A stretch of DNA of 64,000 nt, from assembly GCA_050273025.1 (NCBI GenBank), contig CP158635.1:17484001-17548000 (forward strand), in the 5' to 3' direction. The translations under genes and the position numbers were made by a program. The notes beneath the pieces are model-generated. The model ran no database searches, was not told the DNA's origin, and saw only the letters and a program-made list of their open reading frames with translations. Below are positions 14,990 to 55,600 of this stretch, piece by piece; the stretch's first letter is position 1, and each line of letters opens with the position of its first letter. Source of the stretch: Cenococcum geophilum. Its lineage: Eukaryota.

Positions 14990-14994
14990 TACGC

Positions 14995-26070: not shown

Positions 26071-26089
26071 TTAATAAATAGTATAAATA

Positions 26090-26348
26090 AGGTAAATAGT
26101 AATTAACTAGGCAAACAAATTCTTTCCTTAAGTACTCTTTAAGGTATTATCGTATTATAAGTAGCTCTTTTTGTAATATACTATATAACAGGCTAAACTT
26201 TAGTGTTATACTAGGTTTAAGTTCTATCTTAAAATTATACTCGTCTTAATATAGGGGTAGTTAGTTTATAAATCGTTTCTTAAATATATTAAATAAATTA
26301 TAATATTTTTAGGTATAAGAGGTCGGGGGTTAATATATTACTTTAGTT
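26090..26348 (-). mobile_element. Gypsy X, distal fragment (pol just upstream of RT; truncated)
   Basis: Minus strand de-RIPs to ..YHDLFDVFEK..DQLPPHR.EYDFKIELEPG..PKFGPLYSMS.EEL....YL.E.L.K.F.RP. It is contiguous with 40848+ once LINE B is removed. Confidence 0.75.
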
Positions 26349-29300: not shown

Positions 29301-29588
29301 TTAAAATTTGGTGTATATGGTTTTAAATCTAATAGTCCTGTGCCGTATATTTAGTATAGCTCTACTACCTAGCAAATAGGGACATTTCGCGATAGTAATT
29401 ATAGCTATTATGCAATTGTTAAGAACGTCTATAACGTTATTCTTTAATACTATAGTATTGTTTTAGGTCTAATTTAACCTATATACGTCTTTAATTTAAC
29501 GTCTTAATTACCTTCCCCCGGCCGCGTAGTTAGTTTTTATAAGGAAGTAATAGTTAAATAACTTATACGCGTATTTCCTTCCTTTTAA

Positions 29589-30752
29589 ATAGCGCTATTG
29601 TAACGGAGTTATATCGGCAAGGTTGCGGCTATTTACCAGAAGGGTATTAGACGGTAAAGTATAAGGACACCTTTACTTATTAAGCTGCTCCTTTTCCTTA
29701 ACACCTTACTTTCCTATTATTAACCTTCGTCTAATTTTAGACGTATCTTTAATATATTATTAAGATTTTCTTCTTTTTTATTATTAATTTAATATACCTC
29801 TTTATTTTCCTACTAACTACTCTTCTAAGTAAATTCTATAGCGTATCCTAGCCCTACCTTTATATATAAAACCCTAACCCCCGCTAACCCATAACTAGTG
29901 CTAGTCCTACCTAAATAATTTTGCCTGTACGTCTTTAAAAGACTAGAAATCTAATAATAGGATTCTGGAGGCTTATAATAAGACGCACTATATTAGATCT
30001 AATACCTTTAGTCCTTATAATTAATGCATGCGTATTAAGAGCAGCAGTTACATTAAGGTAAGTTTTTCTATCCTTAATAGATTTCCATTGCTAACTTTAA
30101 GCTTTAATAGCCTAGGCCTAAGTGGCAACGTTCCTTTAATATCCTTAACTACTATATCACCCGGGCTCTCTCTCATTCTAGCGCAAATACTAAACAACTT
30201 GGCCAAATTTAAGACTATGCTATAGCTATCTACACTACCTATAATTCCTAGCAAGCTAGCTAGTAACGCCTAATATAAGAGTAAGGTTAGTATACTAAGG
30301 ATAGGGTGCGTAATAGGGGTAATAAGAAGAAGGTCGCTGTCTACTATAGAAAGGAGTTCGCGTATACGCGTTAAGTTTTAAAAGAGTATAATATAATGCG
30401 GTATTAGGTAGGTTACCCTTTAGGTACCTAGCGGATAGGTAACTAATAATTGCCGTAGTAAGGTCTCGGTAGTTCTAGATTATGCCAGCTAGCTAACATC
30501 TCTATTTATTCTAGGCTTAAGCGTATCTTTATTAACTATAAGCTTACGCCACAAGAGCTTCGTTAGTATTGGTTTGGACCTAATATTAGTGTTAAGCGTT
30601 TAAAAGTCTCTACTCTAGCTACACCTTATTATCCTGCCCCTATTTTTATACCTACTCGTACGCCTATTAAGGCATCTAGATCCTATTCTTATTAGCTATT
30701 ACTTAGTAGCTTAATAGACACTAATCCTACTCCTAATAATAATAAGGCGTAG
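29589..30752 (+). pseudogene. Antisense, spliced Zn2Cys6-like gene carried by Gypsy W (~346 aa before RIP)
   Basis: Exons 29589-29828, 29899-30057, 30111-30752 (240/159/642 nt, all phase 0). Introns GTAAAT..GCTAAC..TAG and GTAAGT..GCTAAC..TAG; TATAAG ~50 nt upstream. Exon 2 reads C*SYLNNFACTSLKD*KSNNRILEAYNKTHYIRSNTFSPYN*CMRIKSSSYIK. Reverting only RIP-type changes gives CQSC-x27-C-x8-CDQC-x7-C-IE. Confidence 0.7.
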
Positions 30753-31384
30753 TGGCTTTTTAGATTAGGCATTTATGGTTTAGACTTTTAGGATTCGTTC
30801 TTGTATATAGTAGCAATTAAGGACCTTAATTAAGTGCTCAGGAAGGCCTTATAAGGCTTTTAGAAAGGGCTTAAAAGCCCTAAGAACAATGTTCCTGGTA
30901 TAAATTAATAAATGGGAATATAATTCTAGTAAAATGCCCTATTAACTCTATGCTATATATATGGAAAGGCTAAAAACCTATCCTGCCTTAGGCCGTAGCC
31001 CTATCCCTATGGTTTCCGGAGCCTATCCGTTCTATATCCAATTTAACCTATTTACTCTTTTCGCGAGCTTTCTTCCTAGGTCGCGATAACACCGTAGTAT
31101 TAGAGCACTTTCTACGACTTGTAGATTGTGGACCTTAGTCCCAATATTCTTTTAAAATATCTTCGCAATAATTAAGGTAATCCTCTGGTTCCTATATAGA
31201 GTCCTTAGCGGGCTAGCCTAGCTATTTAACTTTAAATTAAAGCTTGTTCTTAACAGACTTATAGCATAGTATAGCTTTAACCTTATACCGCTCGCCCACC
31301 ACCTTAGGATGTTTAATTAGGCCTAGATAAAAGTTCTTTTCTAATAGTAGTCTATGCCATAGCTCTAGTAGGTTTATGTAAAAC

Positions 31385-34300
31385 ACTAAATATATATAGG
31401 CTATAGATGGGGGTAGCTGGAGACAATAGGCTAGCTTACTAATTTATTCCTTAACTTAAAAGGGACCTAGGTATCTTATATTGAGCTTCTTTAATAGTTA
31501 ACGGGTCTTAATATTTGTTAAATATAATAGAACCTTATCGCCTACTCCGAAATACTTATCCTAGTACTTACGGTTATACTAAAGTCTCTACTGCACTTAA
31601 GCATCTTATAGGCTCTACTTCGCATGCTTCTATTACTCCTCCTATTCCTAGAGGTATCCTTATACTCTCTAGTGGATATCCTTAGACTTCCTAGTAGGAT
31701 CCTATAACTAATTATACGGCCTTAACTAGTGATTGTTAGGTATACCATTAAACCTAAATAGTCGAACGCTATAGGCAATCTGGATTAGTGCATACTTATA
31801 CAATATATATTGCTTTAAATTATAAGCGTACTCCGCGTACGGAAGTAGCTCGCACTAGTTATCTTACTAGTAGTTCAAATATATCCATAGGTAAGACTCC
31901 AGTTCCTAGTTCTAGCGTTCCGTTTACCCATCCATCTATAGGTAAAAAGCCGTACTATACTAGTGGTCTATCTTTAAATAGAAGTATAGGTCTAACCAGT
32001 ATTAGCTTATAAAGACGCTGCCCCTATTAGTAATAATAGAGTGTAGCTAATCTACTTTAAGAAAGCATTTCTCCTTAATTAGGTTAGCGAGCTTTTATAT
32101 ATTAATCGTCTTATTAACAGGAAGGTATTAGATATACTTTAAAAACCTATTAATAAGTACGAGGACCGAATCGTATGTTTATCCTTAGCTATCTTTAAAT
32201 AGCGGGAGATCCGTAATAAAGTCTATAGCATAATATTACTATGGCTTACTAGCGGGGGAAACTAATTTAAGTAGACCCCATAGCTTATACCTGCGGATCT
32301 TATATACTTAACACTTCTTATAATAGCTAATATACTCCTTTGCTTCCTAATTAAGCCTTAGCTAATAGTATTTACGCTAAAGTAATTCCACTGTCTTTGC
32401 TTAACTATAGTGGCCGCCCAGAGGATCATTGTAATTCTTTATAAGAATCTTCTATCGTAGATTTACTTCTTATAGCACCCAAACCTTACTACCTCTACGT
32501 AGTAGGCCCATCGGGTCTAGTTCCCAATAGTGGCGCCTAGCAGCTTCCTTTCCGTCACGTTTCCGGTCTACTTCCGTATTAAGGTTAGTATAGGAAGCGT
32601 CCCTCTATTACACCTTATAAATGAGATCCGTTAACCTTTCGGATAGTTCCCGGGTAAAAGCTATTTCGTCCTATACTACTCTAAGTATAAGACTAGATAG
32701 TACCATAGATCTTACAACTCTTTAATGCGTATATATTAGGAAGGCCGCTATAAGGTTAAAGTCCTTTAGTTATTATAGGGCTCCGAGTTCCAATTACTCT
32801 ATAGCTTCACTATTTGTTTAAGGGAATAGCTTAGTAATTAGAGATAGTATATTACTAGGTTCCGAGAATATATCGGGGATATTCTATCTAGGTATATTTG
32901 GACCCTTATTGGCAATAGACTGGGTACTAGCTAAAACGTTAGTAGAAACCAATAGGGCTTATACCGCCTAAGACTTAGTGCATAGAGCTATAGGTACTTA
33001 AGCATCCTATACCCGGAGCTTATTCTGCAATATAGGGAGTAAGATATCTATTATCTGTTTTCCTTCTCCCGTTTTAAAGCCTTTGGCATAGTCTAGCCGT
33101 CGTAACGGTCCATTAGCAGGGTTATTTTCCCCTAGCTTATATTTAATCTTAAAATTAAATTGCGTAAGCTCTTCTACCTATCTAGCTTATTAAGGTATAA
33201 GCTCCTTTATAGTTATAAAGTAGCGTAGATTATAGTAATCTAAGAGTACACAAGTAGTATAGCTCGCGTGCTTAAGGTAGTATCGCCACTATTTAAAGCA
33301 GTCGACTATAGCCAGTAGTTCCTTATCATGGGTATAATACCTAACTTTAGGTCCCTAGAATTTTCTGCTATAAAATACTACTAGTCTTTAATAGAGTTAG
33401 GTAGCATCCGGATACCTATTAGGTTGCAGCAGGATACCAATAAGGGCAAAGTTTGATACATTAGTAATTATCATTAATAGCTAATCTAGGTTAAAATGCC
33501 GTAGTAATAAAGCTTCTATAAACTTCGCGCGAAGTTCCCAAAAGGCCTCCTAAACCTTTCTGGGCTATAACTATGGCTTATACTATTTGGTTAGTCCCTT
33601 CTTAGTTTTCTTCCTTACCGCCTTTAAGCTTTTTGCTCCTTAGGTTGGGTTTTAGGAAGCTTCTATAATATAGTTAAATAGGTATTGGGCAACGTCTAAG
33701 TAGTTATAGATAAAGCGCCTGTAGAAATTGGCAAAGCCTAGGAACACTTAAACATCCCAATAGCTCTCTAGCTCTGGCCACTCCTAGATTATCTACACCC
33801 GTACTAGGTCTATAACTATATCTATAGACGTTATAATATAACCTAGGAACTCGACCTGCTTAGTATTAAAGATATACTTTAACGCCTTAGCGTAGAGGCC
33901 CTAATTATCCAAACGTTCCAGCACTTCGCGGATATATTACTCGTATTAATCCTTATCTTCTAAGTAGATTAAGATATTATCTAAATAAACAACATATATA
34001 CGGTCGACTAGTCCCCCTAAGGCTCTGTAAATATACAATTAGAATATCGCAGGCGTATTAGCTAGCCTAAAAGGCATTACCAGATACTTAAAGTGGCCAT
34101 ATTAGGTCTTAAAAGCGGTCTTCCACTTATCCCCTTCTTTAATATAGAGCCTATAATAGGCGTCTTATAGATCTAGCTTCGTGAAGATCTTTGCCCTAAA
34201 TAGTTGATTTAGCATTTTACTAACCAGTAGTAGTAGGTAACGGTTCTTAATTATAATCTTATTAAGACTGTAATAGTCTATATATAGCCTTATAATTCTA

Positions 34301-37105
34301 TCTAGTTTTAGGATAAAGAGGATCAGTATGCCTAACGGCGACTTACTGGGCCGGATTTATCCCTTTTCCAGTAAGCTATTAAGGTACTCCTATAGGATCT
34401 TAAGCTCTTTACGCAAGAGGTTATAAATAGAAAGATTTGGCGGTTACTTACCTTCTTCTAAATTAATTGCATAGTCATACTCCGAGTTCTATAGTAGGAC
34501 TTTAGCTCTCCTACCTAAAAATACCCTTAGTAAGTCCCTTAGGCCTATTAGAATATTTAACAAATTAGGGTCGCGTTTATCCTTTATATTATTGTCAAGT
34601 AGGTTCCGGAGCTCCCTTAAAATACTTACAGGCAGCGTTGTGCGCTATAGTGGTTGCTTATATATAGTTGCCACTATACATTAAACCGTTTTATGCGGTA
34701 GCCAGTAAAGGGTAGGGAACTCCTTAACGCAGCGTTTAAGGTGCCATAGCATACTCTCCGCATATTACTTAAGCTAGAGTAACCTATAGCGGTTAAAGTA
34801 TCTCATAAGATCCTTAAGATCGCCGCCTCCCTACAATGTCTCTATAACCTATCCAGTAGTTCCCTATAAGGTCTCTATTATAGAGGGGTTATTACCTATA
34901 CTAGGCTCTATACCTATCTTGCTATTAAATAGGGGTTAGATTTAATACTCCTTTAGGTATAGAGCGTATACTATTTCGCCTAGGGCTATATTCTCTAGGA
35001 TGTCCTTTAGGCTTATTAGTAATATACGCCCTTCTAAATCTTTATTATTCCACTATTTAAAGGCTCCAGTCTTAAAGCGTATCTTAGGATCTGCTTCTAT
35101 AAGCTAAGGGTATCTAAAGATAAGGTTATAACCTACAAAATCAGCCGCCTAAAAGGGTTGCGGGCCGACTACCTTAGTATAGTTATATATATCGGCCACT
35201 AACACTATAAGCTTATAGGCACTGTGTAGCTTAATCCAATACTTATCCAGGAAGCCTATAATAGGTTTCCGCCACCTTTATAATGGGATAAGTTTATGCT
35301 CTTTTACTAAATTATATCGTATAAGATTAATTTCGGCGCCGCTATTATATAGTGCTTAGAACTATCGTACCTCACCTATAGGGAGTATTATTTCTAGCTT
35401 AACAGCAATACGGAGAGTCTCTCCTTTTATATCTTGCCCTAGTTGCAGCTAGGAGAGGTCTATAACTAGGGCTTTTCTTTTTTTAGATTGTTAGTGCAGT
35501 TATCGCCCTACTTATTTTTCCAATAGGATCTACCTCTAGAGTTTTCTCTTAACTTCTTAAAGTGTTCCCGTAAAGGTACTAGATAGGTATTAGATTAACC
35601 CCAAGAGTCTTTCCCATTATTTAAGGTTCCTAACTTTAACCCTTCTGAAGTTCTCTTTAAGAACGGCTTCTTTAAAGGTTAGGTCTACCCTATATTACTA
35701 CTAGAGTGCCTACGCTTCTAGTAACCCCCTAGCTTCCTACCGGAAGAGGTCTAGTTCCTTACCGCATCCTTAGCGTTTAGAACCGCTCGTTTAAAATCCA
35801 TATATACGGTAATTCGCGGTAGGGCTCCTACGCGCTTTATTTTATCACAAATTACTAGCTTAATTCTAGCCTAGATAAATCCAATCTTCTCCTTCTCGCG
35901 GACGCTGCCGTCCTTATTTTTAAAGGGCTTTAGATCCATCTATTAAGCATAAGTTTCCATAAAGTTTATAAACTGGCAGAAGTCTTAACGGTCTAGCTAC
36001 GTACTATTCCAGAATTATTCTATATTGTTATATTATATAATATACGGATCTTAGGTCTAACCCTTTAGGAAGGTCTATAGCTATAGCCATATTATAATTT
36101 ACTCTTTACTAAATTAATTAAGCGCGATCTAGTTTAGCAATCGGTCTTTAATCTTGCTAATAATCTAGCGTATACGCTCTTTAGTATTATCTTATATTAT
36201 TAGCATCTTAAAGAAGTTGTCTACCTCACGAACCCAATTATCCAGCTATTAGGCGTTAGGTTTATAACAAAGTTCTAAACTACTAAAGGCCTTAGCCAGT
36301 CAGTCTATGTCCTTTTTCTATTTATTGCGTAGGTGCCTCTCTAAGTCTTCCACACCTCCTTAGGTAGGTACTAGGTAGCCCTTAAAAAGCCTTTAGCCTT
36401 AACTAGGTTATAAAAGAATTTATCTAGCTTAGATTAAACCCTACCAGATCTAGATTTGCCCTTAAAGGGTTCTAATATATTTATTAGTGGCTTCCTCCCG
36501 TATGGCTTCTAAGAGCCTTATAACAGCTTCCTAATATCCGTCTTAAAGGAGATTGGTATAGGGCTCTTAACCTTCCAAACTTAGGCCTAGGGAAGCTCCT
36601 GCTATAGAGGTAGTATTAGCACTAGTAGCTAGTGCGGGTTTCCTAATAAGCCTTAGGTCTTAAGTTAGTGTTTAGGTTTAGTTTCCTAAAGGGGTAAGCC
36701 CGCTTAGCTCGTAAGCAGTCTATATACTACTACTATGCCAATTATAGGCTAGTGGTCTTCCAAGAGGGTTCCGGTTAGGTCCCTAGTCGGACGCGTTAAT
36801 ATATTCCTCTGGTATTTCTAGCTTAAGGGAAGATCTTAAGGTCGCCTCTAGCGCTTAATCTTCTAATTGGCCTAGGTGGGACTAAAGGGGTTCCGGTTGC
36901 TTTCCGGCAGCATTATAACCGTTATAAAGGGTGTCTGCGTTTTCCTTAGCAGTAACTATAGGTGTGTAAGAGTCTTCAAGCTCCTAGAGCATCTGGGTAT
37001 TAGGGCTCGTTCGGCCGTCTTACCTAGAGGGTTATATTATCGCAATCTCTCGCTATTAGAGGGACCTTCCTGCCTTTACGCGACGGCTTTCCATAAGGTA
37101 TCCAT
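31385..37105 (-). pseudogene. gag-pol of Gypsy W (gag, protease, RT, RNase H, integrase); 3' end approximate
   Basis: ATG at 37105. RT relics KWKTAFKT*YGHFKYLVMPF (~34070-34130) and VYLDNI (~33975-33990); RNase H YYTHDKELLAIV (~33305-33340); integrase IAMDFITDLP-like (~32205-32235). Confidence 0.9.
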
Positions 37106-40100
37106 GGAGCTTCCATTTAGGTTATCGCGAGATTTTAAGGGAGGATAGTGGTTATAAATAAAAGATATAAATAAACAATCTGGTTCTTAAAGCTAACTAC
37201 CCTTCCAAAAAGAGTAGAAAGGATTTAAATATAAGAGGATCTTGTAGATAGGGGGCTATAAGGACACGATTGTGGAACAGGATAGATTAGTAAGAGAGAC
37301 GAATCCTTAAGGAGGTAAGGCCTCTGGGATTGTGGAGACTATATACTACGGGCACGTACCTCTAGTACGTAATCGGCGACCATCCAAGGGGCGTCCGGGG
37401 GTTGTCCTAAGGGCAACCTAAGGTGTCTGCAATAATATCCCTTACACCTAGGGTTAAAGGGGTTCTATAAATAGAGAACATTATATTAGTAATAAGCTTA
37501 CTAAAAACTAAAGGTATAGAGTCTATCTTACTAGGAGATATAAACCTCCACTACCCGCGGTAGGGGGGTATTTATATTACTGCTAATTAATAGGTAGAGT
37601 GCCTACTAAAAGCTATAAACACCTAGGGCCTTAAGTTAGCCACCCCCCTAGGAGCAACTATATGGTAATAAGGAACCTCTAAAAGTATAATTAACCTTAT
37701 ATTTATAGACGAAGGCCTATATTAAAGACTTAAAAGGTATAACCCCCAAAAAAATAGGCACTTGCCTTAGACTATATCCCTATCCAAATATAGCTAGATT
37801 TAGATATTAAGGCGTAACTAAGTAGCAAAAGATATATAATAAGGAAGCTTAAGATAAATAGTTTTCTTAATATAGTTAAATAACAACTCTAAAACCTAGA
37901 AGAAATCCACCTAATTCCAAACAAGCGAGGCTTATTAGCTACCCCTAAGGAAATTAACTAAAGACTAAAAAGGATCTAGGTAGTAATTAAAAATAGGCTA
38001 AAAGAGTACTGCCTAGTCTTAAAACCGGGCCCCTACACGCGATATATATGGTCCGCATAATACGCGGTTCTTATTACTAGCTAATAATAAGCAAGAAGGA
38101 AATATATAAGTAGCTATAACTTTAAAGATAAGAGATAATATAAAGACATAAGAAACCAGTTAAAGAATACCCTAAAGAAAGAAGTAAGGAATAACTAGAG
38201 ACGGTTTATAAATAAGTACACTTTTAACCCGAGCCTTCCCTATAATAAGGGCCTTTGGGTTATAGCAAAATAGGTAAAGAAAAAGGTAGAGCGTTTAGTA
38301 AAAGACCTATACTTACTACCCCTATAAAGAGTAGGGGAATTATAGGCTACTAATAATAATAATAAGAAGGTAAAGATCCTTATAAAAAGGTTCTTTTTTT
38401 AACTGGCTTTAGTAGACCTTAGTAATATTACGGGTAAAACACTAGTAACTTGCCTAAGAGTTAACAGCGATATAATAACAGAGGAAATAGCCAGAACTAT
38501 TAGCCGCCTTTTAAATAATATAGTATTAGGACCAGATAGGATTCTAAATAAGGCCTTAAAAACCTATAGACTACTTATAGCACCTTAGCTTATAGATATA
38601 GCCAGGGTATACTTTACCGTAGGCTACTACCTACGACTTAGAAGATCTATAACGACGGTTATTCTATAGAAAGAAGGTAAAGTAGATTACTTAATTCTAG
38701 GAAGCTACCGCCCTATTGCCTTAAAAAACACCCTTAGTAAGATCTTAGAAAAGGTAATAGCGGACCATATAGTAGATATGGCTAAGAAATATAATTTACT
38801 ACTATAAAGCTAAATAGGGGCAAGAAAGAACCGCTTAATACTATTAGTACTTACGCTACTTATTGCTACTATTAAATACGCATGGGCGATGCGAAGGGAC
38901 TTTATAGTATTAATACTTAGCCTAGATATTAGCGGCGCCTATAATAATATACCCCATAAGCGTCTCCTATATATCCTTAAGGTAAAAGGCTTCCTAGAAT
39001 AGATTATATAATTTGTTTAAGGGTTTATAGGTTAGAAAGAAATATTACTAGTCTTTAGCGGATACTAGAGCCCCCCTATTATAGTTATAATAGGAATACT
39101 ATAAGGATTACCCCTCTCGCCTATACTCTTCCTTTTCTTTATAAGCAACCTACTTAACTTCTTTAAGAAAGGGGCGACCTAGGGGATAGGCTTTATTAAT
39201 AATATAAACCTAATTATATACGGGCTAATAGCTATAGAGAATTGTAGAACACTAGAGAAAGCTTATAATACCTATATAGAATAGGCAAGACGATATAAAG
39301 TCCAATTCTTATTAGAGAAATACTAGCTAATCCACTTTATAAGAAAACGTAACTAATCTGTAGATCTTTAGCATATAATTTATATCTAAGGCTTTAGGGG
39401 TTAACTAGTTTAGGGCTTAAGGGTATTAGGAGTATAGGTAGATAGTAAGCTCTAGTAAAGCGTATATGCGGCGTAAGCGGCCTATAAGGGCTAAGTATAG
39501 TATATCGTATTATCCAGGATTATTAATTCTATATAGGGTCTATACTTTTAGAGGTTACGCCTACTATATATAGTAGTTGTCCGGCCAACCATAACGTATA
39601 GGTCCAGTATTTAGGCCATTAGAGAATCTAAGAAAGGCCCCCCTAAATCGCTCCTTAAACCACTCTAAAAGGTCTAGATAGCTTGCCTTTAGAGTATAAT
39701 AGGCGGATATAAGCGAACGGCTACAGTACTGCTTAAAAAGGAAGCTAATATTCCCCCCCTATAACTATATATTAAAGCCGCTGTAATATAAAGGGCGTAA
39801 AATAAACGCAACTTTAATGTTATAAAGTATATTAAGATACGCCTAAATATACTATAGAGGGACCCTAGGGCGCCCTATAGGAGAATAAACTAACAACCCT
39901 AAAGTAGGGAAGATATATTAGAGAAACAGGTAAAAAAAAGTAGAAGAAGAATAGTGCTGCTTTAGGGCCTAGACCTATATAGAGGAAGAAGGGAAACGTA
40001 TAAGAGGCCAGTAAAGATAATAGTAAGAGAGAAAAAGAAGCTAAAATAGAGCATAAAAGAACGCTAGGAAACTATTTACTATAATATAATACTGGCTAGA

Positions 40101-40847
40101 CTAATGCTAAAGAGGTATATAGGAGTTAAAGGTATAGAGGCTAACTAAGGTAAGAGAAACCTAAGCCGTAGTATAGTTAACGTTATAGGGGGTAAACACT
40201 CTAGAGCTCTAAGAAGGCCTAATAAAGGCAAAAAAATATAATAGTAATACTCTTAAGAATAGGAATAATAGGACTAAAAGATTGGCTCTACTAGGTGGGT
40301 GTCCTAGTAGGTAGCCTAAGATGTAAATATAGCTAGCTAAGATAAACACTAAAATACGTAATACTGTTATACCCCTTACGCACCAACTAAGAAGTAATAC
40401 TCTTAGTAGCTAGCATAGAGAACTATAATATACTACTCTTAATATAAAAAGGCCTTAAGGCGGTTACCTAGTGGCTTATTAGCTAAAATATACTAAACCA
40501 GTTCTGGGTTATAAAGGAAATAGTAATAAAGGGCAAGGGAGGCGAGCAATAAGCGCCCCTTAATGACTCTATAGTAGTAAAGTAAAGTTTATAATACTAG
40601 CGCGTCCGTAGGCTTATTACGGCAGTAGTGGTTCCTAAAAAGGTTAAAAAGTAAGGTAGTAGAGCACTATAGGTAACTTGTAGGCGCCTTGTAGGCGAGT
40701 CCCTAAAGGTAGGGAGATAGATTACGGGTTTTTCTTAAATAGAGTTTTCTCCCTATATGTATATAAGGAGTAGCCCGCGTAGGCCCAATAGGGATCCGAA
40801 TTAGACGTTAAGTAATAAATAATATATATATATATATTACTTTAGTT

Positions 40848-43141: not shown

Positions 43142-46100
43142 TATTATAGAACCCCACTATAAGGGCCTCTATAGGAGAGCCCCGTGCTCTCGCGTATACC
43201 TCGCGTATAGCTTATATCAGCTACGCGTAGGTATATCACCTCCTTACGCCCTCGACCCTTACGATCGATCGCGCAACGTCTTATAGACTCCTCGAATATA
43301 TACGCTCTATAGCCACTGCCCACATTCCATAACATTACGTTGCGCCTTTTTACTACTAACGCTTAGCCTATAACTAATTCTACATCTCTATAATACTATA
43401 GGCGCTGCTAAAAGCAGCGTATTTATAAATTACCTTACTTTATACTTCTAAGGAACCTATAATAGTAAGATAATATTCCTTACTAGTAATATACTTATAT
43501 ATTATACTTATAAAAGGAGCTCTTACTATACCCGGCCTAAAAAGACTAAAACCAACTAAAAAAAACCCTAAAAAATACCTAGAGAATCCCCCTAAGATAT
43601 ATATATCGCAGGGGAGGCACACGTTAACTAATGGTGGCTCGCACTTATATGTAACCGCCAGATCCACGCCTAACAACGGCCCTCTATAATAAAGATGGGC
43701 GAATACCACACTATAAAGCGGAAATACCTCTATTAAGAAGGCATCTAATAAAATATAAAGCCTATTAGACGCGTCTAGTATCCAGAATTATAGGGGAGTA
43801 ACTATTAGCTATAACGAACTAATATAGCTAGTAGAATAGCTCCGCCAGTCTAGTAAACCTTAGGCGCCCCTTTAGTAAACCCTTAATTAAATCCTCTAAC
43901 GGCTAAGCAAAATTAAAAATAAATAATAACCCCCTTTACCGGCGAACCGCACCTAGGCCGCTATAGCCGCGCTTCTATAGTATAGGAAACCTACCCCCCT
44001 TAAGATAATAACTGGGTATATAATTATAATATAACCAAATATAGAAAAAGTAGAGGGGCTTAGGGGATAATTAGAAATAGAAGTCCTTATAAAGATTTAT
44101 AAAGAGGTTTATGACGTAGTTATAGTCTAACACCTTAAAAGTAGAGACATTAGAATTACCCTAAAGGACTAATAAGTAAAGAAATAAGCTATAAGGGTAG
44201 GGGATAGGCTAGGAGAACGTATTAGCATAAAAGTGCTCCGTAAAGACTACCTAGTTAAAGTCCTAGCAGTTTCTATAAGCTTTAGGGTAGAAAAGGGACG
44301 CTAGGCGGATAATATAGTAACTATATAGGAGATAGTAAAACATACAGAACGCCTTATACTAGGCCTTAAGATTACCCAAATCTAATAGCTTTAATAGGAA
44401 AATGTAAACTAAGCAAATAATAAGAATAATAAAAGGATATAAGGGTCGCTAGAGACTTATTAGGGAGACGCTAGTTAAACGCATAGCTCCCTTATTGTTA
44501 GTATATATATACTAGGAATGCAAAAACTCCTTATTTAAAAAGAAATAATTATAAATGGCCTTATATACAACGCAAGGCTCTATAACTACAGACTACGCCT
44601 AGAATAATGCTACCGCTATATATAATGGGGACATACCTAATCCATATATATAGTATAGGTGTGCTACGGCCACTATATAGGCCCCTATAATATAAAACAC
44701 TGCTTAAATTAAGATTAAATAAAATGCGTAAACTGCCACCAAAGCATATATAAGGCGTAGGAGAGAGAAGACTGCATTAAATATAGGAGGCGGAAGGTAA
44801 GGGCTTAATAGCTATGGGAATAACTATACGCTAGGTTATATAAATGGAAACAATAAGTAATAAGCTAGGGGGATATAGGTGCCTTCCTAGCGTTTCCTAC
44901 CTTTAGTACTAGGGGGCTAGGCTAGCTATTCTAAGCCTTAACGGGCCAGAAGTGGCGCCGCGTAATATTACTAAACCGTATAGGGATATAAGGGTTATAG
45001 GGGATATAAGGGAGAGGACGCCTAGTAGGAAGACCCCTATAGACAGCTATAGTAAGCTTAAGACCAGGATAATTAAGAATTAGATTTAACGCGGCAAATA
45101 TAATATTTACAGCCGACCTATAAAGGGCGTATAGCTAGCTAGTAAGAATAGGGGAGAAACTAGAGATAATAACAGATTTAGATATAAAAGTGCTAGTAGG
45201 AATATAAAATATAGGAATAGAAAGCTCTATATAAAATAAGTAGTAACTAGGGTATAAATATAAGAGATAAAAGTTCTAAATATCCTAGAGAAAGTAAAAA
45301 TAGAAGAAGTAAGAAATAAAGGAGAGGCAAAGGACCCTTGCCGGGGGTCCGCCACCTATTCATTATATAGTATAACTGCGGCAATATAAACCACCGTCTT
45401 ATAAGGCCTTTATTAGACAGTCTAGACCTAAAGAAATACTATATCCTTGCTATATAAGAGCCGTACTATAATACCTATATATAATTAATATACTGCCCCT
45501 AAGGATTCTAGCTCCTATATAAACCAAAAGTAGCTATACGCGTATGCTTTATAATTAGTAAGGCTATTAGCCTATCCTTATAGTTATAGCAGGCAGTTAA
45601 CCTAGATATTATAGTTATAATAATCTAGATATATAGGGGACCGGTATAAATTATTAATATATATAACCCTAGGGTTAAAGGGGTCCTATAAATAGAGAAT
45701 ATTATATTAGTAATAAGCTTGCTAAAAACCAAAGGTATAGAGTCTATCCTATTAGGAGATATAAACCTCCACCACCCGTGGTAGAAGGGTATCTATATTA
45801 CTGCTAATTAATAGGTAAAGTGCCTACTAAGAGCTATAGACACCTAGGGCCTTAAGTTAGCTACCCCCCTAGGAGCAACTATATAGTAATAAGGAACCTC
45901 TAAAAGTATAATTAACCTTATATTTATAGACAAAGGCCTATATTAGAGACTTAAAAAGTATAACCCTAAAGAAGAATAGGCACTCGCCTTAGACTATATC
46001 CCTATCTAGATATAGCTAGATTTGGATATTAAGGCGTAACTAAGTAGTAAAAGATATGTAATAAGGAAGCTTAAGACAAACAGTTTCCTTAATATAGTTA

Positions 46101-47371
46101 AATAATAACTTTAAGACCTAGAAGAAATCCACCCAATTCTAAATAAGTAAGGCTTATTAGCTACCCCTAAGGAAATTAACTAAAGACTAGAAAGAATCTA
46201 GGCAGCGATTAAAAATAGGTTAGAAAAGCACTACCTAGTCTTAAAACCGGGCCCCTATATATAATATATATAGTCCACATAATACACAGTTCTTATTACT
46301 AGCTAATAATAAGTAAGAAGGAAATATATAAGTAGCTATAACCCTAAAAACAAGAGATGATATAAAGACACGAGAAACTAGTTAAAGAATACCCTAAAGA
46401 AAGAAGTAAGGAATAACTAGAGACGGTTTATAAATAAGCACACTTTTAACCTAAGCCTCCCCTATAATAAGGGCCTTTAGGCTATAGTAAAATAGATAAT
46501 AAAAAAGATAGGGCGCCTAGTAAAAGACTTATACCTATTACCCCTATAAAGAGTAGGGGAATTATAGACTACTAATAATAATAATAAAAAGGCAAAGATC
46601 CTTATAAAGAGGTTCTTCCCCTAACCGGCTCTAGTAGACCTTAGTAATATTATAGGTAAAACACTAGTAACTTACCTAAGGGTTGACAGCGATATAATAA
46701 TAGAGGAAATGGCTAGAACTATTAGCCGCCTTTTAAATAATATAGTACTAGGACTAGATAGGATTCTAAATAAGGCCTTAAAAACCTATAGACCATTTAT
46801 AGCACCCTAGCTTATAGATATAGCTAGGGTATACTTTACTATAGGCTACTACCCACAACTTAGAAGATCTATAACAACGGTTATTCTATAGAAAGAAAGT
46901 AAAGCAGATTACTTAATCTTAGGAAGCTACTACCCTATTACCTTAGAAAATACCCTTAGTAAAATCTTAGAAAAGGTAATAGCGGACTATATAGCAGATA
47001 TAGCTAAGAAATATAACCTACTACTATAAAGCTGTTAGGCCATAGAGACGCACTAGCCGTAACCGGCTTAGCGCAGGCGAGGCGCAGGCGAGGCGCCTAC
47101 AAAACGTAGTCGCCCCGCATCAGAGAATAGCAGAATTCAGTTCTACAGTTCTACTTCATTAAGAACCAGATACTCTTCGCATCCCGTTACTATTATCACG
47201 TTACTACATACCCTAAGGACCTTAGCGTCCTAACAGTACTAAATTCTCATCCCTTTTTAGGGGTAGTGGCCTAACAACATAGCGGTCTACTAAGGCCACA
47301 ACTACGTAGCAGCAACCCTCTGTCGAGAAGACGACCTATATTTATTAACTATATCGCAGCCTATTGACCTA

Positions 47372-50300
47372 ATGGCGAGACGCGGGCGTACTAGCATAGT
47401 GCGTACTACTAAGACTAGGGATCGGCCCCAGAATAATATAGGCGAACCTATATCGTCCTAGATAGAACTGGAAGCTATAGGCAAAGGGGATATATAGGAA
47501 GAAATACAACGGCTAGAGAACAAGAAGCTACAACTCCTAGAGTAAAGAAAACTACACTTGCTTAAAGAAGAGGTAGAAGTGCTAAGACGGCGTTAACGCG
47601 GCAAGGTGACGTCAACTCCTGTTCCTAACCCAGATCTACAACCTTAAACTATCCCATTAGAGTACTTAGATGGTAGCTAAATACGTCCAAACCTTAAGCG
47701 AAAGGCTACTGATATAATAGGCGCTCCGTTAAAACGGGCCGTTAAAATAGAAAAGATTGCTCTATATTATAGTAAGACCATATAAGAGCACCAAGACTTC
47801 CGCGATAGCTTAAAGCTGGCGTTCCGCCTAGAGTATAACGGCTTTGCGGATAAGGATACTAAAGTTGCGTTTACTATGTAATATATAAAGGGGACCAACT
47901 AAACCCTTTGGCTGCAGTATGAAGATAACTACCTAGACACGTAGTTTACCTAGGAGGAGCTTATGGAATTCCTACTTAACTAGATCAAAAGTCCTATTAA
48001 TTAAGAACTCTATATAGCCCTAACCTATTTAAGGGCAATACAGCGAACCGATTAACTAGTAAACAAATTTACTGCTTACTTAACCTCTTTAGAAGCGCAA
48101 ATAAACCCTCCTTATAATATAAAGTATTTAATAATATATCTATTCGCGAAGCTGCGGCCAGAGCTACGGGTTGCTATTACCAACTATTAAGAATTCCCTT
48201 AAACTTAAGACCAGCTAGTTTCCCTAGCTGCCCTATTAGAGGAAAACTAGAAGAGCGCAAGCGCCCTATAGGGTAGAAGCAATAGGCGCGCCGTAAACTC
48301 GAATATAAAGACCACCTAGTTAGGTAACTTAGAGAGAATAGACTCCAAAACCACTACTGGCGACTTGATAGTGGGGTAAAGTAATACCGCCGGGGGTTCG
48401 ACTTAGCCTAAAGGAAACTATAAAAATTATAGTAAGCCAGGATATTGGTGGCGAAAATGCCTGGAGTAGTAACAGTAATAGCAGCCGCCACCAAGCACCG
48501 TAAACACCATCTCTATGCTAGGAAAAGGCAGGCGCCCTTGGAGCCCCTCACACCTATAGGGCGTAAGCTACCACTAGATTGTAAGGAAGCTATTACTGTC
48601 TTAGGAGAAGTCCTATCCCAGTAGACTTAGAAAGAGACCTTAGTAATGCTTAATCTCGGCGCCGAAGTAAATGTAATTAATTAGTGATTTGCAATGGAGT
48701 GTAACTTTAAGACACTAGACGTAGAATTACCTACCTACTCCTAGTTAAATAAAACTTAGGCATATTGCTATAAAGCCTATAAGGTACTATTACAAATAAA
48801 GGATAGCTAGGGCAGGATTAGGGAAGTAACCCTTATCTGCTATAGAATGGCTAACGTATCCCCTACTATTACCCTAGGTATACCGGGGTTAAAGAAGGCC
48901 TAACTTCTTATTAACTGCGAGGCGAAGGCGTGGCGATAGAAGCTAGACGGCTTGTCCCTGTTGCTATAAACCCCTAAGGGTTTCGCGGAGTCTTTCTAGA
49001 GGGAATCTAGGGTCTTCGCCCTAGTAATTGCTAGATTAATGCCTAGTAAATAAGACAACGGCAGCTTACCGGTCCTTCCCTTATAGTTAAAAGAAGCTAG
49101 CGATATCTTCTTATATAAGAAAGTAGGAAAGCTACCCTAACACCACTAGGGCGACTATACTATTAACCTAGAAGAGGGACAGGAGGTCCTATATAGACCG
49201 CTCTATAACCTCTTAGTTAAGGAGCTAAAGGTACTAAGGGAGTACTTAAATAACGCCTTAGCTAAAGGTTAAATTTAACCAAGTACTAGTCCCGTAGGGG
49301 CACCTGTCCTATTTATACCTAAAAAAGATAGGAAGCTATAGCTCTATATAGACTATAGAGGCCTTAATAAGGTGACAATTAAGAATTATCTTGCACTACT
49401 ATTAGTTAGTAAGACCTTGGACTACTTAGTAGGTTTTAAGATCTTTACTAAGTTAGACCTAATAAATACGTATTACCGCCTTCGTATCCATTGGGGCGAT
49501 AAGTAGAAAACAGCGTTCCGTACGCGTTACGGCCACTTTAAGTATTTGGTTTTGCCTTTTAGGCTAACTAATAGACTAGTGACCTTTTAGGGCTATATTA
49601 ATCGGGCCTTATTAGGACTAGTAGACGTCTTCTATATAGTCTACCTTAATAATATTCTAATTTTCTCTAAAAATCCAGAGGAATACTGGCGCCACGTACT
49701 AGAAGTGCTATATAGGTTGCGGCAATATTAACTATATACAAACCTTAAGAAGTGCAGGTTTAGTATATAAGAGGTTAAGTTTCTAGGATATATTATTAGT
49801 CCTAAAGGCGTAGCAATAGATCCTAGCTGGGTAGAAGCTATTACTAAGTAGGAGAGCCCTTAATCCTATAGGGATGTCTAGGTCTTTTAAGGTTTTGCTA
49901 ACTTCTATCGCCAGTTTATCTATAAGTACTCTACTATTACGAAGCCTATTACTAATCTCCTTAAGGGAGCAAAGAACGGCCGTAAAGCTAGGCCTTTTAG
50001 TTAGCCAAAAGAGGTAGAGTAGGCAATACGCCAGCTCTATAACGCCTTTACAACGGCGCCGCTCCTATAACACTATACGCCAGGCTTACTAACCTAGTTA
50101 GAGACTAATGCCTCTATATAAGGCCTAGCAGTAATTATATTATAGCTGTTTAAAGATAGCCTTTAGTATCTAATAGCCTTCTAGTTTAGGAAGCTTTCGC
50201 TAGTAGAGCGCAATTATAAGACTTATAATTAGGAGCTACTAGCTATTATAGAGGCTTTTAAGTATTGGAGACACTATATTAAGGGGCTATTAAGCCGCCT

Positions 50301-52125
50301 AGAAGTACTCACAGATTATAATAATCTAAAGGGTTTTATGAAAGTAAAAGCCCTTAATGGACGGCAGGCCAGATAGGCTATAGTATTAGCTATCTATAAC
50401 TTTGTAATTAAGTATAGGGCGGGAAAAACAAACCCCGCAGACGTGCCGTTAAGGTAACCCCTAGGCGCAGGGGGTCCGCTAGAAGAAGACACTATGCTAC
50501 TATTACTCTAAAGGACTTTGGGAATATAGGGCCACTAACCTAAGGTAAAAGTCCTATTAGGTGTACAAGAAAACGAGCCTTCTATAGAGGTGTCGTTTTT
50601 ACGGCTATAAGCCAGCGACCCGACGGCGGTACGCTTAGGCTATATAGCATTACGGTTCGACTGGGCAACCTATACGTATGCCGTTAAGCAGCGTATAATA
50701 AGGACCCAAGTTAGAGAAGCTAGTACTTAAGAGAGTGCTTACAAGTCCAGTACGGAAACAGTCGTCGAGCTTATTAAAGGACTTTAGACTAAAGATGACT
50801 TTATACTACAAAAGCGCAGCGACAGCGTAGATACTACGAGATGCCGTCAACGCGCCTGCTTAAAGCTAGTGTAGCAGTTTAATTCCGCTAGACTACTTTA
50901 TCACCGCGGGAGGCTATATATGCCCCTAGACCTAGCGGTTTATATAGAACCCCTATAGATCTACTACGATAATACCCTAGCTGGGCACTTTAGTAAGAAA
51001 AAGACTCTAGATTTACTCTCGCGTAAGTACTACTGGCTTAGTATAACTGCGGACGTTATAAACTATATCTCTACCTATAATCTATACTAGCGTATACGTA
51101 CGCCTTAATATCGCCCTTATAGCGAGCTCTAAGCGCTGCCTTGCCCAGATTAGCTGTGGCAGAAGATTATAATGGACTTTATTATAGGCCTACCGCCTAG
51201 CAAATAAGGCGAGAAGGTGTATAATACAATATATATAATAGTCAACCGCTATACTAAGATGGCCTTATATCTACCTATAGTAAAAACTATTACTATAACC
51301 AAACTTGCGGATCTCTTCCTTAACGAAGTAGTACGCCGTTTTAGAGCCCCTAGGGGGATTATATCTAATTAAGGCAGTATCTTTACTAGTAAGTTCTGGT
51401 TGGAGCTATGCTTTACTACAAAGATTAAACGTAGGCTAAGTATGGCCTTTTACCCGTAAATAGACGGGTAAATAGAACGCCAGAACCAAACCTTAGAGTA
51501 TTACCTCCGTGTATTCTATAATAAAAAGCAAAGCAACTAGGCAGGCCTTTTATTGCTAGCCGAATTCGCCTATAATAATGCTAAATATAGCACGACGGGT
51601 ATAAGCCCGTTCTATACCTACTATAGGTTTCACCCCCATCTAGAATACAAGGTCTAGGCGGACAATAGTAGCTCTATTCTAGCCGCCTCTGAGAGGATTA
51701 AAAGAATATCCCTTAAACGCGAGGCGCTAGCAAAACGCTAGGAACACGCTGCCAAGGCGTAGGCGAAATACTATAATCATTATCACTAACTATAGGCATA
51801 CAAAGTAGGGGATCTAGTCTTGCTATTAACTAAGAACCTTAAACTAAAAAGGCCAAGTAAAAAGCTTACAGCACGCTTTATTAGACCTTTTAGTATAGCT
51901 AAACCAGTCGGAAAGCAAGCATACCGGCTATATCTACCTACGTCTTACCGTATTCACCCAGTGTTCTATATTAGCTTGCTAGAGCTATACAAACAACGTA
52001 AGGGCACTACTAGAGACCCTCTACCAGGGCCTATTAAGCTAGACGATAAAGGGGACCAAGAGGACCGGTACGAGGTAGAAGAAATACGTGGAAGGAAGGG
52101 ACGCGACCAGACCCTGCAATTCCTG
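47372..52125 (+). pseudogene. gag-pol of Gypsy Z ending in a truncated chromodomain
   Basis: ATG at 47372. Gag knuckle ..KPGYWWRKC, protease MLNLGAEVN (LDSGA), RT VYLNNI (~49640), RNase H TNAS/NYKTYN*ELLAI, integrase, RPSKKLTARFIRPF (GPY/F), then RYEVEEIRGRKGRDQTLQFL, which breaks off. Confidence 0.92.
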
Positions 52126-52652
52126 CACTTAGAGCAAGGGAAAGTCTTCGCCCTTTGGGCGCTGGCGGAGACCGTGCTTGGCGCCGGTGCGCACTAAGGC
52201 CTCAACATCCTTCGTGAAGGACTTCTGGGCGGCAGCGACGCGAGCATCAAGGTCAGCCGTGTCCCCGCCAGCAACCCGCCGGCGCTCAGCCCTGTCAATG
52301 AGGGCGAGCAGCTCGTTTAGGCGGCCATGGAAGGCCTTAGGGACCTAGTCTATTAGCCATCAAAACCTAAACCAACGCACTTAGACGTACTAGTTGGCAT
52401 GACTTATTTAGTCATCGGCAGTACCCGCAATTGCGGTTAGCCTACTTACCGCAGGTAGCCCGCCTAGCAGTAGCTACATACTTGGCGTAACGGAGGCAGA
52501 TTAGTTCCAGCAAAGCTAGGGAAGCGGCTTACGAGCGGCGTGGGAGCTTCGACGGCGCCTAATAGGGTTAGTAACAGCTACAAGCTAGTATAAAAAATAC
52601 TTACGGAAGACTCGCAAGCAGGCAAACCAACGGCTTAGCGCTTGCGATTTAT
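52121..52652 (-). pseudogene. Antisense, spliced Zn2Cys6-like gene carried by Gypsy Z (3'-truncated)
   Basis: Exons 52652-52605, 52558-52391, 52344-~52121, all phase 0. Two 46-nt introns GTAAGT..TACTAAC..TAG and GTACGT..GCTAAT..TAG; TATAAA ~100 nt upstream. Exon 2 reads APSKLPRRS*AASLALLELICLRYAKYVATARRATCGK*ANRNCGYCR*LNKSCQL; five Cys are intact and the sixth is TAC, a G->A change from TGC. Confidence 0.8.
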
Positions 52653-55600
52653 AATTAATTAGAAGTCATAAAGAAGGCGAGTTATAGGCTAAACAAATCA
52701 AGATGGAATTAGAAGGGAAATCTAATGTCCTATCTAGGTGGGAACTCCTACCTTTATAGATCTCTACAAGGTCCTATTATTACATTATCCTATTATTATA
52801 TTACCCTATTATTACATTATCTAATTCACTTAAATTTATCAAAAACTTTTTATTTAGAGAAGGGCAATAATAGCACTCCTATTATATAATAGCGTCGGCT
52901 AAGGACAGCCGCTTAAGAAGGGGGGGGCAATTGTTAGGCCATAGAGACGCACTAGCCGTAACCAGCTTAGCGCAGGTAAGGCGCAGGCAAGGCGCCTACA
53001 AAACATAGTCGCCCCGCATCAGAAAACAGCAGAATTCAGTTCTACAGTTCTACTTCATTAAGAACCAGATACTCTTCGCATCCCGTTACTATTATTATGT
53101 TACTACATGCCCTAAGGACCTTGGCGTCCTAACAAAAGCTAAATAGGGGTAAGAAAGAACCGCTTAACACTATTAGTACTTACGCTACTCGCTACCACCA
53201 TTAAATCCGCATAGGCGATGTGAAGAGACTTTATAGTATTAATGCTTAGCCTAGATATTAGCGGCGCCTATAATAACATACCCTATAAGCGTTTCCTATA
53301 TATCCTTAGAGCAAAAGGCTTCCTAAAATGGATTATATAATTTGTTTAAGGATTTATAGGTTAGAAAGAAACATCACTAATCTTTAGCGGATACTAGAGC
53401 CCCCCTATTACAGTTATAATAGAAATACTATAAGGATTACCCCTCTTACCTATACTCTTCCTTTTCTTTATAAGCAACCTACTTAACTCCTTTAAGAAAG
53501 GGGTAACCTAGGGGATAGGCTTTATTAATAATACAAACCTAATTATATACGGGCCAATAGCTGCAAAGAATTACAGAATACTAGAGAAAGCTTATAACAC
53601 CTATATAAAATAGGCAAGACAATATAGAGTCCAATTCTTACTAAAGAAATACTAGCTAATCTACTTTATAAGAAAACGCAACTAATCTGTAGATCTCTAG
53701 TATATAATTTATATCTAAGGCTTTAGGGGTTAACCAGTTTAGGGCTTAAGGGTATTAGGAGTATGGGTAGACAGTAAGCTCCAGTAGAGCGTATATATAG
53801 CGTAAGCGGCCTATAAGGGCTAAGTATAGTACATCGCATTATCCAGGATTGTTAATTTCACATAGGGTCTATACTTTTAGAGGTTACGCCTACTATATAT
53901 AGCAGTTATCCGGCTAACTATAACATATAGGTCTAGTATTTAGGCCATTAGAGAATCTAAGAAAGGCCCCCTTAAATCGCTCTATAAACCACTCTAAAAG
54001 GTCTAAATAGCCTACCTTTAAAGTATAATAGGCGGATATAAGTAAACGGCCATAGTACTGCTTAAAAAGGAAGCTAATATTCCCCCCCTATAACTATATA
54101 TTAAAGCCGCTATAATATAAAGGGCGTAAAATAAATATAACTCTAATATTATAAAGTATATTAAGACACGCCTAAATAAACTATAGAGGGATTTTAGGGC
54201 GCCCTATAGGAGAACAAACTAATAACCCTAAAGTAGGGAAGATATATTAGAGAAATAGGTAAAGAAAGCAGAAGAAGAATAGTGCTGCTTTAGGGCCTAG
54301 GCCTATATAGAGGAGAAAGGGAGACGTATAAGAGGCCAGTAAAAATAATAATAAGAGAGAGAAAAGAGCTAAAGTAGAGTATAAAAGAACGCTAGGAAAC
54401 TATCTACCGTAATATAATACTGGCTGGACTAACGCTAAAGAGGTATATAGGAGTTGAAGGTATAGAGGCTAACTAAGGCAAGAGGAACCTAAGCTGTAGC
54501 ATGGTTAACGCTATATAGGGTAAATACTTTAGGGCTCTAAGAAGGCCTAATAAAGGTAGAAAATATAATAGCAACACTCTTAAGAACAGAAATAATAGGA
54601 CTAAAAGACTAGCTCTACTGGGTGGGTATTCTAGTAAATAGCCTAAAATACAAATATAGCTGGCTAAAACAGACACCAAAATATATAATACTGTTATGCC
54701 CCTTATACACCAACTAAAAAGTAATGCTCTTAGTAGCTAGCACAGAGAACTATAATATACTACTCTTAATATAAAAAGGCCTTAAGGCGGTTACCTAGTG
54801 GCTTATTAGCTAAAATATACTAAACCAGTTCCGGGTTATAAGGGAAATAGTAATAGAGGGTAGGGGGGGCAAGCAACGGGCGCCCCCTAATAACTCTACA
54901 GTAGTAGAGTAAAGTTTGCGATACTAGTGCATCCGTAGGCTTATTACGGCAGCAGTGGTTCCTAAAAAGGTTAAAAAGTAAGGTAGTAGAGTACTATAGG
55001 TAACTCGTAGGCGCCTTATAGGCGCCTTATAGGCGAGTCCTAAAAGGCAGAGAGATAGATTACAGGGTTTTCTTAAATAGAGTTTTCTCCCTATATATAT
55101 ATAAGGAGTAGTCCGCGTAGGCCTAATGGATCTAAATCGGACGTTAAGCAATAAATAATAATAATATTCCTTACTAGCTACTATATTAAACCCAAAGAAT
55201 AATCTAATACCTATACTTAACCTATAACGCCAATCAATCCTAAAAGAATTTAATTTATTAGCCCTAACCCTTAAGGAGATAGACACTAATAATATCTTAT
55301 CTTTTATTAACTATATAACTACGGATAAGCAAATAAAAAGGCTATTACCTATTAAAATTAAAATATAAGACGCTAAAACATTTATAAAAATAGTAGTACA
55401 AAACCCTAATAAATACTACCGCCTTTTATAGAACTACTACCTAAAGCTTACACGAGCTAAGATGCGTACTACCTAAGATCGCGATATTATCTAAGACCTA
55501 TAAGCTTATAAGGCGCTCGCTAATAATATACGTTAAGAAACTAAAAATAACCTCTATGTATCTAAACGTAACGTTTAACAGTTAAAGAAGAATAAGATTA

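Follow-up and report, generated by a model that had tools for sequence, protein, structure and literature searches.

HBZ of human T-cell leukemia virus type 1 (HTLV-1) is an antisense-encoded, spliced basic leucine zipper (bZIP) factor of a retrovirus that is driven from the 3′ long terminal repeat (LTR), and, to our knowledge, brtn is the only described fungal antisense accessory gene of an LTR retrotransposon. We analyzed a stretch of 64,000 nucleotides from Cenococcum geophilum (contig CP158635.1, positions 17,484,001 to 17,548,000; the whole stretch is hereafter the window), in which a Ty3/Gypsy element carries a gene antisense to its pol. We conclude, with a probability of roughly 0.75 for the statement as a whole, that positions 52132–52652 (− strand) hold the remains of a true accessory gene carried by a family of Ty3/Gypsy chromoviruses, in a copy killed by repeat-induced point mutation (RIP) and shortened by a deletion.

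The source of brtn is said to be Zhao et al. 2011 (Virology 417:248). Passages in four papers describe it as the antisense gene of Boty-like Ty3/Gypsy elements in Botrytis cinerea (PMC8365987, PMC7264820, PMC4227169, PMC5987419). According to these passages, the B05.10 annotation in current use lacks the gene (PMC8365987), and BRTN proteins are present in public databases (PMC5987419). Antisense extra open reading frames (ORFs) of unknown function are placed between pol and the 3′ LTR, in the excerpted text of PMC7264820, both in plant Gypsy elements and in Boty of Botrytis and Sclerotinia, with Grande, RIRE2, Retand, and PvRetro13 as examples of the plant class (aORF-3R).

The present gene resembles brtn as described there: each is an extra gene of a fungal Gypsy element with a chromodomain, runs antisense to gag-pol in the interval from pol to the 3′ LTR, and is missing from standard genome annotation (PMC8365987 for brtn). 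The likeness is one of arrangement, and the LTRs here are 203 bp; by this analogy, brtn is the closest known parallel. Further, the gene has the position and orientation of plant aORF-3R: the pol domains finish by ~52112, the gene occupies 52132–52652 on the − strand with pol on the + strand, and the 3′ LTR starts at 52932. It is also conserved like the element's own proteins, as the excerpt of PMC7264820 says of aORF-3R. It differs from aORF-3R in its fungal host, its six-Cys cluster, and its two to three short fungal-type introns, with no sequence likeness shown between them. HBZ is a parallel by analogy only; it shares with what we propose here a location on the minus strand of a retroelement near the 3′ LTR, a spliced mRNA, and a small product with the shape of a nuclear regulator, whereas the present gene has a putative internal promoter, a Cys-rich module, and a fungal host. 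A literature search on retrotransposon antisense ORFs with zinc cluster, Zn2Cys6, or chromovirus as terms found no such gene described. The arrangement itself is therefore already known from brtn and the plant aORFs; what is new is a gene with no detectable named relative, two to three fungal-type introns, and measured purifying selection.

The antisense gene and its decay by RIP

In the window, the antisense gene occupies the interval from pol to the 3′ LTR, is transcribed toward pol, and has three exons and two 46-nt GT..AG introns. Its parts, read from upstream to downstream, are the following.

52771..52820, − strand: three tandem repeats of ~16 nt (GACAATGTAACAATAG in the related locus L001), upstream of the TATA box, read in the window and in L001
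52753..52758, − strand: TATAAA box, ~100 nt upstream of the start codon (window reading)
52605..52652, − strand: exon 1, 16 codons, ATA in place of ATG, one stop (window reading and comparison of loci)
52559..52604, − strand: intron 1, 46 nt, GTAAGT..TACTAAC..TAG (window reading)
52391..52558, − strand: exon 2, 56 codons, three stops, five Cys plus a TAC-coded Tyr (window reading)
52345..52390, − strand: intron 2, 46 nt, GTACGT..GCTAAT..TAG (window reading)
52132..52344, − strand: exon 3, first 71 of 107 codons, open (window reading and intact copies)
52129..52131, − strand: TAA, a RIP-mutated CAA (Gln) codon (counts among loci)

The start codon stands in the context CAACCATG, and the Cys cluster of exon 2 has the spacing C-x2-C-x11-C-x7-C-x2-C-x6-C. 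The window copy is dead because its ATG has become ATA, four in-frame stops (all within exons 1 and 2) interrupt it, its second Cys has become Tyr, and a deletion of ~480 bp has removed its end. Exon 3 is lightly affected: when it is set against L001, 226 nt hold 9 RIP-type changes.

Metagenome contigs were scanned with the smaller alignment A2 as the query, alignment A1 being too diverse. Of the 110 relatives recovered, the 80 best loci were retained and all aligned with the window (81 rows). The three-exon layout is common to the 80 loci, and in two of these, L001 and L008, the gene is fully intact, with an ATG, 16 + 56 + 107 codons, six Cys in the arrangement CLRC-x11-C-x7-CGYC-x6-C, no stop, and 46-nt GTAAGT..TAG introns. 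Relative to their states (ATG, six Cys, no stop), the defects of the window copy are all of RIP type, C>T or G>A. In the remaining 78 loci, too, most differences are C>T and G>A, and L003, L005, L018, and L025 are separated from L001 by RIP-type changes alone. Counts among the 80 loci were as follows.

Start codon: ATG in 18, ATA in 57
Second Cys codon: TGY (TGC/TGT) in 29, TAY (TAC/TAT) in 49
Intron 1 donor: GTAAG[TC] in 41, ATAAG[TC] in 31
Intron 1 acceptor: TAG in 68, TAA in 5
Intron 2 donor: GTAAGT in 63, GTACGT in 13
Intron 2 acceptor: TAG in 74, TAA in 4
Codon at window 52129–52131: CAA in 18, TAA in 61

In 78–79 of the 80 loci, each of the six Cys positions holds either TGY or TAY, its RIP derivative, and splice-signal variation consists of RIP-type changes or swaps between canonical forms and nothing else. 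The start, Cys, and splice counts fit RIP decay from an ancestor with ATG and Cys codons. A sequence-only reading of the window had described three exons, joined by two 46-nt introns, of a gene antisense to a Gypsy element, and the 80 loci bear out both this layout and the introns as real. Its peptide, reconstructed by reversing RIP, is nearly identical to those of the natural copies L001 and L008, and its expectations of an ancestral ATG at 52652, of a Cys in place of the TAC-coded Tyr, and of a C2–C3 loop of 11 residues rather than 6 all agree with the intact copies; nor do the other copies lack the splice signals, as the acceptor counts above indicate. A RIP-reversed reading of a dead copy can thus recover a gene correctly. 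Some of its claims have to be revised. The TAA that it took as the stop is a mutated Gln codon, through which the metagenome ORFs P0002 and P0005 continue; its lower bound, 52121, lies 8 nt past that TAA; and the model is not complete at three exons (see below). The perfect TACTAAC branch point of intron 1 is indeed present in the window, but it is not ancestral: the stretch reads TGTCGCTAA in 34 of the 80 loci and TGTTACTAA in 2, and, by this comparison, the window TACTAAC (52570–52576, − strand; L001 2188–2194) is the RIP product of CGCTAAC. RIP can give splice signals a more canonical appearance than they had ancestrally.

In L001, the gene spans 2110–2894 and the pol stop stands at 3004. 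The pol frame of L001 is open over 520 codons, to the contig end, and L001 therefore looks like a live master copy. Upstream of the gene, the TATA box region TATAAAGGT is retained in 70 of the 80 loci, and the TATAAA box may act as the promoter of the gene. Two loci from other metagenomes, L070 and L076, have lost intron 1 by a 55-nt deletion (the 46 nt plus 9 exon nt) with the frame kept, and the length of intron 2, 46 or 47 nt, reflects a 1-nt indel shared by 36 copies.

Selection, transcripts, and a longer gene model

Transversions were used as the signal of selection because RIP cannot make them, and a site was counted as transversion-polymorphic when the minor class occurred in at least 2 of the 81 rows. 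The number of such sites per 100 nt was as follows.

Far upstream: 52
TATA box to ATG: 26.7
Exon 1: 22.9
Intron 1: 13.0
Exon 2: 7.1
Intron 2: 10.9
Exon 3 (first 279 nt): 2.5
Spacer: 13.8
End of pol: 2.0

Among these loci, which were selected by exon 3, exons 3 and 2 are thus conserved on a par with the element's own protein. Within exons 2 and 3, third codon positions hold 13 of the 19 transversion sites, and all 13 are synonymous (binomial P = 0.0019). In exon 2, the ratio of synonymous to nonsynonymous sites is 9/3 in the gene frame versus 2/10, 1/11, and 4/8 in the frames of the opposite strand. Between L001 and L008, exons 2 and 3 differ by 16 synonymous and 1 nonsynonymous change, giving a ratio of nonsynonymous to synonymous proportions (pN/pS) of 0.022 (Fisher P = 3.5e-9). 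Exon 1 displayed no third-position or synonymous bias beyond its conserved M-N/D-R-K-R start. We conclude from these substitution patterns that the antisense frame was, in all likelihood, a protein-coding gene under purifying selection while the family spread, and we have little doubt that, at the level of the family, the gene is real.

We also note that the introns of L001 and L008 (L001 2158–2203, 2372–2417, and 2697–2753) do not differ at any of 149 nt, whereas, beside them, exon 1 differs at 9 of 48 nt and the start of exon 2 at 13 of 168 nt, mostly synonymously. Either the introns of these two copies are seemingly under more constraint than synonymous sites are, or L001 and L008 are mosaics.

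Transcripts were sought in four RNA-seq runs of one study (X1–X4), in which 20–23% of the sampled words of L001 1990–2900 are present. RNA contigs were aligned to L001 1850–2800; they carry no strand and cannot show absence, and it is in this sense that no contig of run X1 aligned there. Runs X2 and X3 each gave one contig of 6415 nt (k-mer depth ~930–1280) that spans L001 1850–2800 and is 90–95% alike. This 6415-nt contig has the 47-nt form of intron 2 and several substitutions shared with the 36-locus group, and the ends of the X3 contig overlap, as in LTR-to-LTR assemblies. It seems to represent a sister subfamily, and the element family seems to be highly transcribed there.

The longer gene model comes from the full copies, in which the antisense ORF extends 36 codons past the truncation of the window copy. 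In L001, ...DVMRAS is followed by GTACGT and, 57 nt on, by GCTAAC...TAG (2697–2753), after which exon 4 provides an in-frame acidic stretch of 46 codons, ANMPPIVRDEEEDEGEED...DSLEL, and then a stop. Variation in the donor, branch site, and acceptor of this intron 3 is of RIP type only, with the acceptor TAG in 78 of the 80 loci. In exon 4, third positions hold 15 of 18 transversion sites, and indels are nearly all multiples of 3. Further, record 7 of run X4 (150 nt, depth 4.3) aligns to L001 2632–2689 and 2754–2798 with 7 letters between; 6 of the 7 match an L024-type variant of 2690–2696, and the seventh falls at a fourfold-degenerate Ser position. The record is thus without exactly 2697–2753, the predicted intron 3 (GTACGT...GCTAAC...TAG), which reads as GT..AG on the antisense strand only, and the joined form was absent from the DNA loci (1.1 Mb examined). 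Overall, a third intron of 57 nt probably joins an acidic tail to the gene. Two products of intact copies are therefore possible, one of 179 aa if intron 3 is retained, ending ...VRVVAQVFRRRSVC, and one of 211 aa with a C-terminal Asp/Glu tail if it is removed. Downstream of the exon 3 stop, GTATGC...TAG was also considered as an "intron," but at 21 nt it is too short and was dismissed; its branch site and acceptor are those of the 57-nt intron that begins at the GTACGT upstream.

Nature of the product and rival explanations

The predicted protein has a basic, Pro-rich N terminus, a basic six-Cys module, helices, and perhaps the acidic tail. Exhaustive protein searches with exon 3 returned short, unnamed metagenome ORFs (43–89 aa) and ankyrin-like chance matches; the ankyrin-repeat proteins (P0004 and P0006–P0010) were rejected as composition or repeat likeness to ...VEALVRTGA.... 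The near-length matches to the 107-aa exon 3 number 19, all of them unnamed ENA/JGI metagenome ORFs, and word-based searches with exons 3 and 2 found no protein of at least 99 aa. The window exons, with stops read as X, had no Pfam match. Among PDB sequences, the rows that exon 3 returned for AmfC and TetR (E 0.4–1.1 only) were rejected. An AlphaFold2 model of exon 3 (7-row alignment) has three helices with a mean predicted local distance difference test (pLDDT) score of 71.5, rising to 88–90 over residues 11–40, and that of exon 2 (single sequence) has two helices in a helical hairpin at pLDDT 68; a homodimer prediction for exon 3 scored 0.02 and counts neither way. The best Atlas leads scored 0.85 for exon 2 (unnamed Ascomycota clusters) and 0.75 for exon 3. 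DUF3716 (PF12511) is not supported: hmmscan did not report it at E ≤ 10, and its sole lead was the Atlas cluster at rank 14 (score 0.78), 28% of whose members carry PF12511.

We propose that the element carries, between pol and its 3′ LTR and convergent with pol, an accessory gene with its own TATA box, the introns of which, being antisense with respect to the genomic RNA, would not be lost in retrotransposition. Its product would regulate transcription or silencing to the benefit of the element by way of the six-Cys module, the helical region, and the acidic tail. From this layout, our best guess, at odds rather worse than even, is a small protein of the nucleus that would bind metal and nucleic acid through its basic six-Cys module. 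The fuller proposal, in which an active element encodes its own spliced antisense regulator, a metal- and nucleic acid-binding protein with an acidic effector tail that targets the LTR, its own promoter repeats, or host silencing, is more doubtful again. If it were true, fungi would have in this protein an equivalent of HBZ and other retroviral antisense proteins, and it would be the first member of a family named in no database.

Several observations weigh against our reading. The loci were selected for holding exon 3, and hence they do not give the proportion of family members with the gene. For L008, one of the two intact copies, a chimeric metagenome assembly is possible, since RIP has struck its pol but not its gene: within this locus (9693–11400) no RIP-type change occurs in 382 nt of the gene region (intron 2, exon 3, and intron 3), as against 37 in 388 nt of the neighboring pol, and ORFs of at least 150 aa are absent; recombinant origin or patchy RIP are the alternatives. 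Both 6415-nt contigs (X2 and X3) and a 454-nt contig of X4 (depth 823) retain all three introns, and among the RNA contigs on L001 1850–2800 none has intron 1 or intron 2 removed. The intron 3 joint is a single low-depth contig from one run, and the reading of it as an exact splice assumes a C-for-A variant at the last exon base. The GAG/GAT triplet repeat of exon 4 would give 3-nt indels and third-position variation even if it were non-coding. In exon 3, the synonymous/nonsynonymous count is 4/3 in the gene frame versus 3/4 in the opposite shadow frame, and, as these frames share third positions, this count alone cannot separate them. On the protein side, intact exons 2 and 3 of L001 and L008 matched no Pfam family at E ≤ 10 by hmmscan, Zn_clus included; intact exon 2 matched no PDB sequence at E ≤ 10; and no named homologue was found in libraries of 1.84 billion or 5.8 billion proteins. 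The exon 2 model, with its pLDDT of 68, gave no Foldseek match at E ≤ 0.001, and its best VIA-align Z was 4.8, with all such matches to generic helical hairpins.

The sequence-only reading had gone further and likened the layout of the product to Gal4-type DNA-binding plus dimerization regions. The order that it described, a basic N terminus and six Cys followed by helices, is upheld (the helices by the exon 3 model), but membership of the Gal4 family is not. The Zn2Cys6 pattern is C-x2-C-x6-C-x5-12-C-x2-C-x6-8-C. The present protein resembles Zn2Cys6 proteins (PF00172) in its six Cys, conserved in L001 and L008, its basic character, its fungal host, the helices after the cluster, and a possible acidic tail; the second half of the cluster, C-x7-C-x2-C-x6-C, lies within the Zn2Cys6 range, and all spacers other than C2–C3 fit. 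It departs from them in a C2–C3 spacer of 11 residues rather than 6 and in having neither a profile match nor structural support: as noted above, intact exon 2 matched nothing in Pfam or among PDB sequences at E ≤ 10, and fold searches were uninformative. Membership of the Gal4 type is not supported by these spacing and profile comparisons, and a true binuclear-cluster transcription factor with a coiled-coil dimerization region is, in our estimation, unlikely.

It is more improbable still that the gene is a captured host gene carried as a passenger, i.e. real coding DNA of no service to the element. Its introns, its own promoter-like signals, and the lack of likeness to retroelement proteins would all suit such an origin, but purifying selection is seen among copies that could diverge only during transposition of the element, and no host homologue turned up in any library searched; origin by capture is, in any case, compatible with an accessory gene that serves the element. 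We give yet less weight to the idea that the antisense transcript works as RNA, in regulation of the sense RNA or in small-RNA pathways, with the ORF incidental. Convergence with pol and the abundance of the whole element in RNA libraries agree with it, whereas the synonymous excess and third-position bias are specific to the antisense frame, and the start codon, the Cys codons, and the frame are all conserved. Hardly credible, finally, is the view that there is no gene and that GC-rich DNA has merely left a frame open by chance or as the "shadow" of another. L001 does have several long open frames on both strands, among them a 107-codon frame on the minus strand of that locus, exactly opposite exon 3, that, with its shared third positions, scores nearly as well as the gene there; yet the gene frame is clearly the best in exon 2, it runs across two canonical introns with a pN/pS of 0.022, and the RNA joint is GT..AG on the gene strand only. 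These shadow ORFs opposite the gene were rejected on their substitution pattern. An accessory gene of the chromovirus thus remains our preferred reading.

The family makes a clean test system, with an apparently active element, an intact master copy (L001), and abundant RNA, and with a short gene that is under very strong purifying selection and has a recognizable module layout. Further, reference proteomes can lack a gene that codes for a conserved protein: the only matches here are unnamed metagenome ORF fragments. Its absence may be due to transposable element regions being masked, or RIP-mutated, before annotation.

The carrier element and its surroundings

The element that carries the gene is a RIP-mutated Ty3/Gypsy element on the + strand, an assignment that follows from pol domains in the + strand frame of 47035. 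Its features are the following.

47028..47032, no strand: target-site duplication AAAGC (5 bp), 5′ copy, read directly; the 3′ copy is at 53135–53139
47033..53134, + strand: Ty3/Gypsy element, RIP-mutated (self-comparison and reading of the ends)
47033..47235, + strand: 5′ LTR, 203 bp, TGTTAG...TAACA (self-BLAST and ends read)
47236..52112, + strand: gag-pol of a Ty3/Gypsy chromovirus, RIP-mutated, in the frame of 47035
52113..52118, no strand: junction of the ~480-bp deletion, microhomology TGCAGG (comparison with related loci)
52915..52927, + strand: polypurine tract AAGAAGGGGGGGG, just 5′ of the 3′ LTR
52932..53134, + strand: 3′ LTR, 203 bp (self-BLAST and ends read)

With stops read as X, pol gave Pfam matches to RVT_1, RT_RNaseH, Integrase_H2C2, and SH3_Tf2-1. 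The LTR pair is 93% identical by self-BLAST (47033–47244 versus 52932–53144). Composition and dinucleotide indices indicate heavy RIP-type mutation along the element, with a lightly affected GC-rich island at ~52200–52400; RIP suggests a filamentous ascomycete as the host. The ~480 bp directly 3′ of exon 3 that are absent from the window are present in all loci spanning the site, and the reference compared with these loci gives two aligned blocks ~470–490 bp apart. The antisense ORF thereby lost its closing 36 codons and the exon for the acidic tail, and pol its stop and the bulk of its chromodomain; a purine-rich stretch and the spacer went as well. The window chromodomain accordingly breaks off after ...YEVEEIRGRKGRDQTLQ; in L001 the domain reads ...DQTLQYLVKWKGWPEEYNEWVPAED..., most of the window's equivalent of which is deleted, and the intact pol ends ...DQTLQYLVKWKGWPEEYNEW...KRKRK. 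The LTRs (47060–47100 and 52960–52995) also have a short tandem GCGCAGGCGAG repeat and CCG-N3-CCG motifs, which are possible protein-binding sites, although chance occurrence is to be expected in GC-rich DNA.

A tblastn search of the window with the L001 exons found this one copy of the antisense gene alone, and no homologue in a second LTR element of ~8.9 kb at 28529–37444. The latter has 213-bp LTRs (28529–28741 and 37232–37444) that are 94% alike and a pol on the opposite strand (34003–34425 versus 49626–49204, 68%). Both LTR elements are nested in separate copies of the same repeat family, of which the window has two (23373–28548, 37447–40841, 43473–47033, and 53135–55175, 85–91% alike), in a pile of transposable elements with a GC content of 0.26–0.39. 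The gene-bearing flank at 1–20000 has a GC content of 0.41–0.53 and includes ORFs of the SurE family (4790–5572) and of a PAF-AH_p_II-like protein (9885–11081), as well as pieces of pogo-like transposase (HTH_ABP1_N at 8049–8567 and DDE_1 at 13566–14042).

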